Shown: positions 561 through 11,511, counted from the stretch's first letter. The stretch: DNA of 11,520 nucleotides from a virus (IMGVR_UViG_2974636330_000001:85023-96542), one strand, 5' to 3'. Numbers and translations are program-made. Notes: a model not told the origin generated them from the sequence alone.

Positions 561-2498
561 ATGTTTGTCAGCATTTTCAGTAAGGAACAGCAGACCATCG
601 AGAATCTCGGTGGTAAAGGCTTCGGTCTGTGGCAGATGCAGCAGTCGGGCCTGAATGTCCCCCCGGCGCTGATCATCCCGACCGAGTTCTGCATCGAGTA
701 CCTCGCCAACCCGACGAAAGTGCGGGGCTGGATCAAGGACAAGTTGCCGGAAGTCCGTGAGTTCTTCGTGGAGCAGTTCGGCTACATGCCGCTGCTGTCT
801 GTCCGCTCCGGCGCTCGCACGTCGATGCCGGGCATGATGGACACGATTCTCAACGTCGGCCTCGACCCGCACACCACGCAGTTCTGGGTGGACAAGCTGG
901 GTCCGGCCTGCACCATGGACAGCCGCGAACGTCTGATCGAAATGTACGGTTCGGTGGTTGATGAACTGGACCGCGAAGACTTCGAAGGTCTGGACGTTGC
1001 GGGCCGACTGGCTCTGTACAAGGAACACACGGGCCACGACTTCCCGGAGGCAGATGACCAGATTCTCGGGGCCATCGAAGCCGTGTTCCGCAGCTGGAAC
1101 AACGACCGCGCCAAGGTGTACCGGAAGATGCACGGCATCCCGGAAGAGTGGGGCACGGCGGTGACCCTGCAAGCGATGGTGTTCGGCAACTACAACGACC
1201 AGTCGGCGACCGGTGTGCTGTTCACCCGCAACCCGGACAACGGGCTGGCTGAAGTGACCGGCGAGTTCCTGATCAACGCACAGGGCGAGGACGTGGTGGC
1301 GGGCATCAAGACCCCGCAGAAGCTGTACGACATGAAGGCGTGGAACGAGAAGGTCTACAACGAGCTGTTGGCCACGGTGATCGATCTCGAACTGAAGCGT
1401 AAGGACGTGCAGGACGTGGAGTTCACCATCCAAGATGGCAAGCTCTATATCCTCCAGACCCGTAACGCCAAGCGCAGTGCGCAGGCAGCGGTGAAGATCG
1501 CTCTGGACATGGTGGGCGAGAAGCTGCTGACCCCCACGGAAGCGATCAAGCGGGTGAGCCGCGCACAGTACGGCATGATGCGCCAGCCGATCCTCGACCC
1601 GAAGTTCAAGGACAAGGCAGAGTGGGAAGGCATCGCCGCCTGCTCGGGCGTGGCAACGGGCGTTGTGGTCCATTCGTCGCAGGCTGCAATTGATTGCAAG
1701 GTGCCCTGCATCTTGGTCACCAAGGAAACCACCCCGGATGATATCGCGGGCATGGTGGCCGCTCAGGCGGTGATCACGATGCAAGGTGGCAGCACCAGCC
1801 ACGCAGCGGTGGTGGCTCGCGGCATGAACAAGCCGTGCATCGTGGGCGTCGGCGCTGAAATCTCGGAGTTCAAGAAGGGTGTCGTGGTCAGTATCGACGG
1901 CGCAACTGGTCGTATCTGGCAGGGCGAAGTCCCGGTGATCGACAACAGTAAGTCGGAAGAACTGGAGAAGTTCAACCAGATGATGCTGGAGGCAGGCAAT
2001 GTCCAGATCATCAGCACCGACCACAACACTCCCTGCGCCATGCTGGATTTGACCGAGGTCATCCAGACGCCGGAAGTCGCGTTGGAGCGTATCCGTGGGC
2101 GGCTGCTCCAGAAGGGCGAGTTCATTGTCGATATCAGCCCGGGCGACACCGAGGCCGGACGTATGGTCAGCATGTTCTGTGACCCGGTGGATTTGCAGGA
2201 AGACCTGCTGGTGATGGTGGCCAAGAGCCTGACGAAGGAGCAGCTGGCCCGGGTGTCGTTCTCGACGGACTTCACCAAGGAGGTTCCGGGGGTGTCCTGC
2301 ATCAGTCGAGTGACCACGCTGGAGGCTCTGATCGAGAGCGACGGCAACTTTGAAATGGCCATGAAGGTGTCGAAAGTGGTCAAGAAGGTGCTGGCTTGGA
2401 AGGCCAACGAGAACTGCCACCCGATGGTGTTCGGCACGAGGACTGAAGGCAATTCGTTCCTCTCTCAGGAACAGGTGATCGCGGAGTTGCTGGCGTGA
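561..2498 (+). CDS. Pyruvate phosphate dikinase-like phosphotransferase (ATP-grasp plus phospho-His swivel domain; PEP/pyruvate TIM barrel absent, replaced by about 185 aa of unknown domain)
   Basis: PPDK motifs in canonical order: LGGKG, LSVRSGA..SMPGMMDTILNVG, LQAMVFGN, SATGVLFTRNP, GEFLINAQGEDVVAG, DVEFTI, LYILQTRNAKR, ETTPDDIAGM, GGSTSHAAVVARG (His codon 1800-1802), VSIDGATG. About 645 aa, against about 880 for canonical PPDK. ATG 561 fits the RBS spacing; GTG 558 is an alternative start. Confidence 0.9.
   Translation: MFVSIFSKEQQTIENLGGKGFGLWQMQQSGLNVPPALIIPTEFCIEYLANPTKVRGWIKDKLPEVREFFVEQFGYMPLLSVRSGARTSMPGMMDTILNVGLDPHTTQFWVDKLGPACTMDSRERLIEMYGSVVDELDREDFEGLDVAGRLALYKEHTGHDFPEADDQILGAIEAVFRSWNNDRAKVYRKMHGIPEEWGTAVTLQAMVFGNYNDQSATGVLFTRNPDNGLAEVTGEFLINAQGEDVVAGIKTPQKLYDMKAWNEKVYNELLATVIDLELKRKDVQDVEFTIQDGKLYILQTRNAKRSAQAAVKIALDMVGEKLLTPTEAIKRVSRAQYGMMRQPILDPKFKDKAEWEGIAACSGVATGVVVHSSQAAIDCKVPCILVTKETTPDDIAGMVAAQAVITMQGGSTSHAAVVARGMNKPCIVGVGAEISEFKKGVVVSIDGATGRIWQGEVPVIDNSKSEELEKFNQMMLEAGNVQIISTDHNTPCAMLDLTEVIQTPEVALERIRGRLLQKGEFIVDISPGDTEAGRMVSMFCDPVDLQEDLLVMVAKSLTKEQLARVSFSTDFTKEVPGVSCISRVTTLEALIESDGNFEMAMKVSKVVKKVLAWKANENCHPMVFGTRTEGNSFLSQEQVIAELLA
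1685..1698 (-). promoter_or_regulatory. Dispersed 14-bp pseudo-palindrome TGCAAT-CA-ATTGCA, copy 1 (TGCAATTGATTGCA on +)
   Basis: Exact reverse complement of the 14-mers at 5536 and 11498. Embedded in the dikinase CDS using locally unusual codons (gca att gat). Confidence 0.65.
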
Positions 2499-2543
2499 AA
2501 CCCGCTCTGTACAATGGCTGGAACCTGAAGGAACCCCAGCCCC

Positions 2544-2960
2544 ATGAGATCAGAGTGCCCGAAGTGCGGAAGTCAGTCCGCGTGGATCGAACAGACCCGG
2601 CAGGATACGACGCTTCGTTGCGTATGCGGCTACCTGAAAGTGCTTTCCACGAAGCTGGAGCGGATCGAAATCATCCGGGTGGACGTGGAAGCCGAGGCGA
2701 AGTTGCCTCGACGGAACTCGAATCTCTGGAACACGGTGAAGGTTTTGGAGGTGTACCAGCCAGCGTCGTCGGCGAGTATCACCCAGCGCCTGAACGACTT
2801 GAAGCTGGGCACCGAGTTCACGGTGAGTGATGTGAGTTCGTACCTCACCATCCTGCGCTCGAAGGGACTGGTCGTAACGACCGAAAGTCGCCGAGGGCTG
2901 GCCGGGGGGAGTACGTGGAAACTGAGTGATGTTTGTAACAGGCTGCTGGGAGTAGGGTGA
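2544..2960 (+). CDS. Zn-ribbon plus winged helix-turn-helix protein, putative transcription regulator
   Basis: N-terminal CPKC...CVCG. The C-terminal LWNTVKVL..ASSASITQRL..TVSDVSSYLTILRSKGLV..RRG..GGSTWKLS has the helix-helix-recognition helix-wing pattern. Start uncertain (see finding at 2483). Confidence 0.7.
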   Translation: MRSECPKCGSQSAWIEQTRQDTTLRCVCGYLKVLSTKLERIEIIRVDVEAEAKLPRRNSNLWNTVKVLEVYQPASSASITQRLNDLKLGTEFTVSDVSSYLTILRSKGLVVTTESRRGLAGGSTWKLSDVCNRLLGVG

Positions 2961-2961
2961 A

Positions 2962-3303
2962 ATGGCACTGTCAATTGGAGTGAAGAAGGGGAGTCAGATC
3001 AACATCGGCGGCGAGCGTATCGGAGGCCGCACGATCATGGACATGTACCAGCGTCCGAAGCTGATCGACTACACCCTGAAAGGTGGGCAAACGATGACGG
3101 TGGTGCAGGTGGACGGCACCGAGAAGATCGTCGTGGAGTTCTGCGGAAAGACCCTGACCCTGACCGACAAAGAGCGCGTGAAGTTGCAGGAAGGTGTGTT
3201 CGTCAGCTGCGGCCTGTCGAATGGCAAGGGGCAGGACTTCTACGGGCGTCTGGCATTCGAGGCTCCAAGGAGTGTGCGAATTGAGCGCATCCACACCCCC
3301 TGA
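2962..3303 (+). CDS. CsrA/RsmA-like RNA-binding protein, possibly a tandem (two-repeat) form
   Basis: C-terminal GRLAFEAPRSVRIER matches CsrA VRIGVNAPKEVSVHR, including the R44-equivalent Arg. N-terminal VKKGSQINIGG matches RRVGETLMIGD. At 113 aa it is about twice CsrA length. By-eye alignment only. Confidence 0.55.
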   Translation: MALSIGVKKGSQINIGGERIGGRTIMDMYQRPKLIDYTLKGGQTMTVVQVDGTEKIVVEFCGKTLTLTDKERVKLQEGVFVSCGLSNGKGQDFYGRLAFEAPRSVRIERIHTP

Positions 3304-10706: not shown

Positions 10707-11348
10707 GCGGCCAGAACAAGAAGTACACGCTGGAAGACTGCATCCAGAAGAATCGGGAACACCCGCTCTCCTTCATGATCCCCTCGCGGGAAGAGGTGTC
10801 CCAACTGAAGAAAGGCGATCTGGTGAAGCTGATCTTCAACCACCCGGAGGGTGTGCCCCTCCCCAATGAGCGGATGTGGGTGATCGTCCACACGGTGGAA
10901 GGCGACAAGTTCACCGGGGAGTTGAACAACGATCCCCTGACGTTTGACCCTCTGGACCTGAAGGACACCGACATTGTGGAGTTCGAAGGCAAGCACATCG
11001 CCGGCGATGTGCTTGCCTTCGAACTCCACAATGTCGGTGTCCTTCAGGTCCAGAGGGTCAAACGTCAGGGGATCGTTGTTCAACTCCCCGGTGAACTTGT
11101 CGCCTTCCACCGTGTGGACGATCACCCACATCCGCTCATTGGGGAGGGGCACACCCTCCGGGTGGTTGAAGATCAGCTTCACCAGATCGCCTTTCTTCAG
11201 TTGGGACACCTCTTCCCGCGAGGGGATCATGAAGGAGAGCGGGTGTTCCCGATTCTTCTGGATGCAGTCTTCCAGCGTGTACTTCTTGTTCTGGCCGCTC
11301 ACAGTTCACCCCCTTCCACCACCGTGAGGACTTCACCGTGGGTGATCG
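10657..11348. repeat. Perfect 692-bp spacerless palindrome (two 346-bp arms)
   Basis: Centre ...CACATCGCC|GGCGATGTG... between 11002 and 11003. Position x pairs with 22005-x, out to 10657/11348. Mirror-image ORFs appear on both strands. Confidence 0.97.
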
Positions 11349-11494
11349 TCCACACGGTGGAAGGCGACAAGTTCACCGGGGAGTTGAACAACGATCCCCT
11401 GACGTTTGACCCTCTGGACCTGAAGGACACCGACATTGTGGAGTTCGAAGGCAAGCACATCGCCAATTTCGTGAAGGCAGCGACCCGCCACTGA
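10703..11494 (+). CDS. DUF2314-like protein, natively about 109 aa (10703-11002 joined to 11465-11494), interrupted by a 462-bp in-frame inverted insertion
   Basis: ERMWVIV..VEGDKFTGELNNDP..L...D.VEF...HI resembles the DUF2314/YegJ pattern. Removing 11003-11464 restores ...GKHIA-NFVKAATRH*. GTGA-coupled start. Confidence 0.7.
   Translation: MSGQNKKYTLEDCIQKNREHPLSFMIPSREEVSQLKKGDLVKLIFNHPEGVPLPNERMWVIVHTVEGDKFTGELNNDPLTFDPLDLKDTDIVEFEGKHIAGDVLAFELHNVGVLQVQRVKRQGIVVQLPGELVAFHRVDDHPHPLIGEGHTLRVVEDQLHQIAFLQLGHLFPRGDHEGERVFPILLDAVFQRVLLVLAAHSSPPSTTVRTSPWVIVHTVEGDKFTGELNNDPLTFDPLDLKDTDIVEFEGKHIANFVKAATRH
11338..11464 (+). repeat. 127-bp direct copy of 10876-11002 (third copy of this segment)
   Basis: Identical at offset 462. 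It begins at the 11-nt microhomology GTGGGTGATCG. Confidence 0.95.
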
Positions 11495-11497
11495 CGC

Positions 11498-11511
11498 TGC
11501 AATCAATTGCA
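11498..11511 (+). promoter_or_regulatory. Dispersed 14-bp pseudo-palindrome TGCAATCAATTGCA, copy 3
   Basis: Intergenic, 3 nt after the stop at 11494. 15-of-15 identity with 5536-5550. Confidence 0.65.

Follow-up and report, generated by a model that had tools for sequence, protein, structure and literature searches.

An evenly spaced array of 14-bp dyad sites in a Stenotrophomonas phage genome, each a putative docking site for a phage-encoded DNA-binding protein

The window studied here is a stretch of 11,520 nucleotides of viral DNA (IMGVR_UViG_2974636330_000001:85023-96542) covering bases 85,023-96,542, i.e., the final 11.5 kb of a 96,542-bp phage record. The phage is a Delepquintavirus close to Stenotrophomonas phages Summit (91% identity) and DLP3 (83%), which belong to the same genus. 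It contains three exact matches to a 14-bp dyad site, TGCAATCAATTGCA. The first lies at 1685-1698 on the minus strand, within a pyruvate-phosphate-dikinase-like (PPDK-like) open reading frame (ORF) at 558-2498, and the second at 5536-5549 on the plus strand, within a dual-specificity-phosphatase-like ORF at 5185-5973 that has Pfam phosphatase matches. The third, at 11498-11511 on the plus strand, is intergenic, beginning 4 nt past the stop codon of the ORF at 10703-11494 and lying 9 nt before the end of the record. The three copies have nothing in common in their flanks, and no additional site is found in the window even when up to two mismatches are allowed (chance expectation 0.10, from dinucleotide-preserving shuffles).

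Read in their genes, the site at 1685 codes for A-I-D-C and the site at 5536 codes for C-N-Q-L-Q, the latter with the rare codons AAT, CAA, and TTG. The original prediction, which was made from the window alone, held that the in-gene copies force rare codons, and codon usage in this 58% guanine-cytosine (GC) genome agrees: the shares of the respective synonymous sets are 22% for AAT, 17% for CAA, 16% for TTG, 17% for GCA, 21% for ATT, and 33% for GAT, so that all codons it named fall at 16-33%, and the share of TCA is 4%. Positions 558-6910 of the window form a block made up of the PPDK-like gene, two CX5R phosphatase-like genes, and three genes of unknown function. This block occurs in 12 of 18 relatives and is missing from G003, G005, G006, G013, G017, and G020 (related genomes carry G numbers throughout), and thus we regard it as an accessory module that is not tied to the site array.

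The three window copies belong to an array that runs through the whole 96.5-kb genome, where the exact word occurs 26 times (18 on the plus strand and 8 on the minus strand) and about 0 copies are expected; the reversed word, taken as a control, has 0 occurrences in the whole genome. The prediction of three identical 14-mers, two of them within genes and very unlikely by chance, was correct in its positions, and the set of copies is larger than the window showed. As in the window, the flanks of the 26 copies are without shared sequence. Copies not fully within a gene number 10 of the 26, though ~90% of the genome is coding, and the other 16 make use of every stop-free reading frame in either orientation, with in-gene placement resting on single-strand gene calls. 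The original prediction had proposed that the word be counted across the full contig against a codon-shuffled background. We shuffled the synonymous codons of all genes in 1000 trials, leaving intergenic DNA untouched, and at most 11 of the 26 copies were left (mean 9.6), about 10 of these being the untouched intergenic or gene-edge copies. The array is also spaced more evenly than random placement would give. Mean spacing is ~3.7 kb, with gaps from 676 to 7,417 bp, and the coefficient of variation of the spacing is 0.43, whereas randomly placed sites give 0.95 (P<1e-4, with such evenness in fewer than 1 in 20,000 simulations). Similarly even spacing was seen in seven of nine relatives tested.

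Selection acts on the array at the DNA level, as is indicated by the use of all stop-free frames, the rare codons, the retention of every site in Summit, and the persistence of sites at orthologous positions in more distant relatives. All 26 sites are letter-perfect in Summit, with 300-bp flanks that are 72-96% identical (about 90% being typical), and 21 of 26 are perfect in DLP3, with flanks about 83% identical. Arithmetic from flank identity gives an expected survival of ~0.23 for an unconstrained 14-mer at the Summit divergence and ~0.07 at that of DLP3. Among the five sites that differ in DLP3, three carry changes of the central dinucleotide (CA/TG flip, CG), one an A9-to-G change, and one is unalignable; the reverse comparison adds one TA centre. 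At greater distance, 16 of 34 testable orthologous codon positions hold a site in G001, G002, G004, G007, and G008, whose proteins are ~50% identical, and at such positions the centre is often flipped, with the amino acid changing with the flip (D/N, S/L). All three window sites are unchanged in both Summit and DLP3, and the two in-gene ones fall in the long-lived class that is kept across relatives of ~50% identity: the orthologous codon position of the site at 1685 is occupied in G001, G002, and G007, two of which have the flipped centre (D to N), and that of the site at 5536 is occupied in G001 and G004. Selection at the DNA level, which the original prediction had read from rare codons, is thus upheld by a broader set of observations, and the further copies and the conservation in relatives on which that prediction had staked itself were both found.

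Several simple roles for the sites can be set aside on this evidence. They are not promoters, given that all Summit genes lie on one strand and the sites face both ways, and that the nearest sites are 370-1,900 bp from promoter-leader cassettes, which were located by pattern; the earlier description of the copies as dispersed and not promoter-bound fits this whole-genome array. Since the copies occur on both strands and in all five stop-free frames, they are not an RNA element or a peptide motif either, and the peptides that they encode differ (e.g., LQSIA, LQLIA, AAIDC, VAINC, and CNQLQ). As marks of recombination or module boundaries, they find no clear signal in the ends of homology, which fall within 50 bp of a site in 0 of 29 cases versus Summit and in 4 of 46 versus DLP3 (P about 0.04). 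We would like to note that four intergenic copies, at genome positions 3264, 6375, 28134, and 78484 (3227, 6338, 28085, and 78397 in Summit), lie just ahead of the annotated Shine-Dalgarno sequence of the following gene, with 0-4 nt in between, in the order site, AGGAG, ~6 nt, and ATG. Short intergenic spacers may be the sole cause of this closeness.

The shape of the site is that of an inverted repeat with an imperfect middle. The arms, TGCAA and TTGCA, are palindromic and constant, and the central 4 bp (TCAA here) are fixed per genome. The base flanking the 14-mer is itself symmetric and lineage-specific (C..G, T..A, or G..C), which makes the site really 16 bp long. One-mismatch variants concentrate in the site centre: the genome studied here has about ten of them versus about 0.02 expected (an estimate from base composition), mostly with the central four bases changed (TCAG, TTAA, CCAA), and just one further TGCAATNNATTGCA, with TA at its centre. 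The central CA/TG is kept, and CG and TA, the fully palindromic centres, are seldom found in the genome's own clade. On the sense strand, the ratio of CA to TG is 18:8 in this genome, 11:11 in G003, 29:1 in G004, and 5:18 in G008. One variant, TGCAATCAGTTGCA (A9 to G), occurs 2-5 times per genome in many lineages, including this one, DLP3, G004, G006, and G008, and predominates in locus L285; the site probably tolerates it as a second version.

Scanning IMG/VR for the exact word retrieved many ~95-100-kb contigs with several copies. Counting exact TGCAATCAATTGCA in whole records gave 26 copies in Summit, 24 in DLP3, 39 in G001, 50 in G002, 22 in G003, 30 in G004, 9 in G005, 47 in G007, 23 in G008 (62 kb), 20 in G009 (51 kb), 40 in G019, and 17 in G023. 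The GC content of the counted genomes runs from 39% to 62%, the relatives at 47-62% GC hold 22-50 copies, and the identical 14-mer is common to phages of that GC range with only 25-55% protein identity. Other lineages retain the arms and have a centre of their own: TGCAATTAATTGCA with centre TTAA in G010 (50 copies), TTGCAAACGTTTGCAA with centre ACGT in G013 (17), TTGCAACCACTTGCAA with centre CCAC in G015 (21), GTGCAACAAATTGCAC with centre CAAA in G016 (11), TTGCAATAAATTGCAA with centre TAAA in G017 (20), GCACTTAAGTGC in G012 (15), CGCAATCAATTGCG in G020 (about 17), and a CG-centred form in G006. A tree built from four replication proteins places TCAA-centred genomes both in the crown clade and at the distant G003 and G005, and this centre is therefore probably the ancestral one. 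A literature search yielded no paper with the 14-mer or its 12-mer cores, unrelated primers aside, and the repeat is not mentioned in the DLP3 paper (PMC7326821).

The word is a property of phage DNA and not of a host regulon, for in three metagenome-assembled bacterial genomes (13.6 Mb), all 36 exact copies are on a phage contig or the phage part of a contig, and none are elsewhere. The first ~48 kb of the 374,533-bp contig C20 (CAVXKP010000020.1) of G024, an Acidobacteriaceae metagenome bin, is a relative of the phage studied here with 19 canonical sites; this could be a copy that is integrated or joined there, or else a product of chimeric assembly. G021 and G023 are labeled proviruses in IMG/VR. 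G020 (IMGVR_UViG_3300050120_000169; 80 kb, called complete, with terminal repeats) has replication genes together with its CGCAATCAATTGCG array, and a profile search of it detected no portal, protease, capsid, terminase, or polymerase of this phage group.

To account for the array, the selection on it, its lineage-specific versions, and its restriction to phage DNA, all of which are observed, we favor as fairly probable a reading in which a dimer of a putative phage-encoded DNA-binding protein docks with high affinity at each copy, the site being two-fold symmetric. The even spacing, at about one site per 2-4 kb, suggests that the whole chromosome is to be covered, either by the bound protein itself or by a factor that it loads or recruits and that has a reach of a few kb. 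A need to cover the whole chromosome points in turn to a genome-wide role, so the array would serve in marking, organising, or silencing the genome rather than in the control of single promoters. The interchangeable ParB_N-domain enzymes encoded next to the terminase genes would be one possible recruited factor.

In looking for the reader of the sites, profiles were built for every protein family shared with at least two crown-clade relatives and were searched in 18 motif-bearing genomes, i.e., carriers of the motif or of a lineage-specific version. The original prediction had put forward a winged helix-turn-helix protein in the window as one candidate binder. This protein, from the plus-strand ORF at 2544-2960 (138 aa), has by eye an N-terminal CxxC...CxC zinc ribbon and a C-terminal winged-helix-like part, retrieves a weak Lar-like Pfam match only, and has no PHROG match and no match among PDB sequences; with relatives in just 7 of the 18 genomes, and missing from complete genomes with 22-50 sites, it is rejected as the reader. 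A MerR-like regulator (genome 43,342-43,743) is likewise no universal reader, since a synteny check found its gene missing between the helicase and RecA genes in G005, G006, G010, G015, and G016. The single-stranded DNA-binding (SSB)-like protein at genome 40,948-41,721 is universal, but Atlas features indicate single-strand DNA binding of the gp32 type. A small-terminase-like ORF at 70,799-71,446 shows no group-wide conservation at the sequence level.

The best candidate is a universal 270-aa protein encoded outside the window, at genome 47,752-48,564, with a predicted ParB/KorB-like DNA-binding fold. Only this protein, an SF2 helicase, and a RecA-like protein were found in 16 of 16 distant genomes by single-sequence search. 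It belongs to a PHROG family of unknown function and has more than 300 homologues, all unnamed. A profile search of PDB sequences gave no match, and AlphaFold DB clusters returned only unnamed, DUF222, or HNH-associated helical proteins. In its AlphaFold2 (AF2) model, with a predicted local distance difference test (pLDDT) score of 83, the core (residues ~47-170) was aligned by an exhaustive structural aligner to the DNA-binding domains of ParB-parS (Z 7.8), Spo0J (Z 7.2), KorB-operator (Z 6.7 and 6.0), SopB-DNA (Z 4.5), and P1 ParB-DNA (Z 4.0), and the KorB alignment at Z 6.7 covers 107 of 114 residues. R102, Y106, W129, and K131 are invariant, K103, A104, and T130 are kept in at least 90% of sequences, and the invariant residues lie where the predicted recognition helix and the helix after it begin; by an approximate mapping onto the model, these would be the places where the KorB/ParB family contacts DNA. 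Of 62 loci (each 15 kb or more) surrounding homologues of this protein, 38 show a near-palindromic 12-mer in three or more repeats. The protein has no ParB_N CTPase domain. Residues ~181-223 look by eye like a ribbon-helix-helix (strand LKFKFK, helix DQVETVTSALNKAK, TxxD, helix VALEAICTGYL) and give a weak structural match to the N-terminal domain of MazE9 (Z 4.4); should the resemblance be real, this part of the model could be a dimerisation element or a reader of the site centre.

A number of points weigh against this protein, and against a simple symmetric dimer in general. No Pfam domain was detected in the family (40 members searched), and Foldseek gave no significant match to the PDB for the model. 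The top structural row is an unrelated Rubisco chaperone (Z 8.8), and Z values of 4-7.8 are middling for an all-helical model, so that the fold match is a lead with a consistent family of hits and not proof. Roughly a third of the homologue-bearing loci have no more than a sparse array, or carry a more asymmetric word. A change of Leu107 to Trp tracks the TTAA centre in a single clade, and Leu is retained in a separate, independent lineage with TTAA. Co-occurrence with the motif would be expected of any core protein of this phage group. Finally, the non-palindromic centre of the site and the opposite strand biases of G004 and G008 are left unaccounted for by a simple symmetric dimer. On balance, we put the 270-aa protein forward as a tentative reader, an identification that sequence and model make possible and that we would rather doubt than assume.

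A second protein with a ParB connection offers a different account of the same sites. The 284-aa protein encoded at genome 69,945-70,799, adjoining the terminase genes, has a Pfam ParB_N domain, and in its AF2 model the N-terminal domain and the helical domain after it match Noc, KorB, and ParB (Foldseek E ~1e-8, 160-226 columns). The sites might thus be loading sites for a clamp formed by this protein, which would load at the palindrome and slide a few kb in the manner of KorB. Its homologues are abundant (about 50-60% identical), the loci around them hold the motif or a lineage-specific version, and the even spacing would suit a limited sliding range, the reach of KorB being about 1.5 kb (PMC11790492). 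Nevertheless, we consider this account improbable. G002 (50 sites), G003 (22), and G004 (30) keep the canonical word and lack the 284-aa protein, having instead unrelated ParB_N paralogues that are similar in the N-terminal domain alone, two of them fused to a methyltransferase. Furthermore, the arginine patch of the 284-aa protein reads GHHRFEVA, not GERRxRA, the helix at its helix-turn-helix position is acidic (FADEKEF), and the genome encodes no ParA. In G002 and G003, two or three ParB_N paralogues stand in tandem by the terminase, and the one adjoining the terminase (G002 L135:3596-5329, minus strand; G003 L142:12368-13948, plus strand) is fused to a class I S-adenosylmethionine (SAM) methyltransferase (Methyltransf_23).

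The asymmetry of the centre, which troubles the dimer reading, is what recommends the idea that sequence-specific single-strand nicks are introduced at the sites in late infection, in the way known from T5 and some Pseudomonas phages. A dimeric enzyme would then be positioned by the palindromic arms, and the asymmetric centre would restrict the cut to one strand, in keeping with the retained CA/TG and the rarity of palindromic CG/TA centres in the genome's own clade, as well as with the strong strand bias of some genomes. These phages also have T5-like replication genes, the crown clade has a DNA ligase, and a protein of the ParB/Srx fold and of the 'nuclease-type' GHHR adjoins the terminase. 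Such a mechanism sits badly with the perfectly palindromic centres that occur at high copy (TTAA 50 times in G010 and ACGT 17 times in G013) and with orthologous sites that flip orientation freely. Moreover, only 7 of 18 genomes have the ligase, no HNH or other nickase was identified, and homology breakpoints are not at sites. There is, in our estimate, little chance that nicking explains the array.

Still less chance attaches to the sites being stoperator-like roadblocks at which a repressor keeps a one-direction genome silent during lysogeny or a carrier state, on the model of Cluster A mycobacteriophages. All genes are indeed on one strand, the sites are enriched in non-coding DNA (10 of 26, versus 10% of the genome), their orientation shows a mild excess (18:8), and DLP3 is reported to be temperate (PMC7326821). 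The orientation is mixed, however, with a bias of opposite sign between genomes, and most sites are within genes. The same word is found across 25-55% protein identity and 47-62% GC, which is the opposite of what immunity specificity predicts, and no repressor or integrase module accompanies the array, the MerR-like regulator being missing in 5 of 18 genomes. Lastly, the word might designate positions of site-specific DNA modification, or positions exempt from a general hypermodification of the phage DNA, which is the least probable of these accounts. In its favor are the resistance of DLP3 DNA to all 15 restriction enzymes tried (PMC7326821), the ParB_N-methyltransferase fusions in G002 and G003, and a sugar-tailoring cassette adjoining the packaging genes. 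Against it, no enzyme with a 14-16-bp target was identified, the fusions are not universal, and even spacing and a lineage-specific centre suit a binding site at least equally.

Returning to docking sites for a dimeric phage protein, a wider formulation may be offered as a speculation that we consider unlikely. Namely, a large, old group of ~80-120-kb tailed phages of many hosts would have a split ParB-like self-marking system, composed of a stand-alone ParB/KorB-type reader without CTPase domain or ParA and of interchangeable ParB_N-domain enzymes, which would distinguish phage from host DNA in, e.g., packaging, modification, or protection. If true, this would be genome-wide self-marking of a kind not described for viruses, and an array that marks phage DNA as self would amount to a new principle of viral chromosome biology. 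The strong evidence for selection, the lineage versions of the site that are ready to be swapped, and the short list of candidates make the purpose of the array directly testable, and the array occurs in cultured, tractable phages (DLP3, DLP5-like, and Summit). It also bears on the engineering of phages proposed for Stenotrophomonas maltophilia therapy, in that gene recoding would destroy sites.

Among known systems, parS (read by ParB), NBS (Noc), and matS (MatP) are palindromes of 13-16 bp with dimeric readers, dispersed so as to mark a replicon or a domain of one. The present sites are similarly short palindromes spread along a replicon, and differ in their far higher density of one per 2-4 kb, in the lack of the word on bacterial DNA in 13.6 Mb, and in the lack of ParA. 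Searches with PF13614 and PF01656 gave no match in the 96.5-kb genome and found both families in 14 of 14 control genomes; with no ParA encoded, the array is not a ParABS centromere. Nor is a ParB with a CTPase motif present wherever the sites are, as the 284-aa protein has the GHHRFEVA patch and is replaced in G002, G003, and G004. Cluster A stoperators (e.g., the sites of L5 gp71) are asymmetric, oriented with transcription, mostly intergenic, and different between immunity groups. The resemblance is that tens of near-identical 13-14-bp sites are strewn across a phage genome, many of them away from promoters. In contrast, the sites described here are dyads of mixed orientation, mostly in genes, and common to very divergent phages: a single orientation is contradicted by the ratios of 18:8, 11:11, 29:1, and 5:18 and by the flips between orthologous sites, and tracking of immunity group is contradicted by the identical word in very divergent phages. 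The original prediction had likened the copies to stoperators or to parS/matS-type organising sites. The dispersed, genome-wide character that it saw was borne out, whereas the specific likenesses fell, that to true parS for want of ParA and that to stoperators on account of the mixed orientation and the shared word.

As an analogy, the nearest worked-out system is KorB of the IncP plasmid RK2, which loads at 12 OB operators, TTTAGCSGCTAAA, and slides up to about 1.5 kb (PMC11790492). Shared with it is a short palindrome dispersed across a replicon; a long-range action and reading by a ParB-superfamily DNA-binding domain may also be common to both, the candidate reader having a predicted domain of that kind with alignment scores that are middling for a helical model. 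RK2 is a plasmid, whereas the array is in phages, with 26-50 sites that are mostly in genes, evenly spaced, and asymmetric at the centre. Furthermore, no ParA/IncC was found here, no KorA-like partner turned up (no structure-based search for one was made), the candidate reader is without a ParB_N CTPase domain, and the separate ParB_N protein is not universal.

The closest likeness among phages is to the Cluster O mycobacteriophages (Corndog and relatives), through which dispersed phage dyad arrays have been on record since 2015 without a known reader or function (PMC4351075). Their 17-bp dyad repeat, TGTTCGGNNNCCGAACA, present 34 times in Corndog, has invariant arms, a variable centre, and no meaningful orientation, with about a third of copies in genes; these phages encode proteins with ParB-like domains and no parAB, and a dimeric binder was predicted for the repeat, whose function is unknown (PMC4351075). 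The array described here likewise has more than 20 copies, invariant arms, and copies in coding and non-coding DNA that are not tied to promoters. The two have in common many copies (more than 30 per genome), invariant inverted arms, an often asymmetric centre without a link to transcription, about a third to two thirds of copies in coding DNA, and ParB-like proteins without parAB. The sequences are unrelated, and arm and spacer lengths differ, so the likeness is one of kind and not of homology. The Cluster O sites crowd toward one end of the genome, whereas the present array is evenly spread. The array is thus of the same kind as that of Cluster O, and what sets it apart is the word itself, its even spacing, its occurrence in a much wider and older phage group, and the lineage-specific centres that it carries there.

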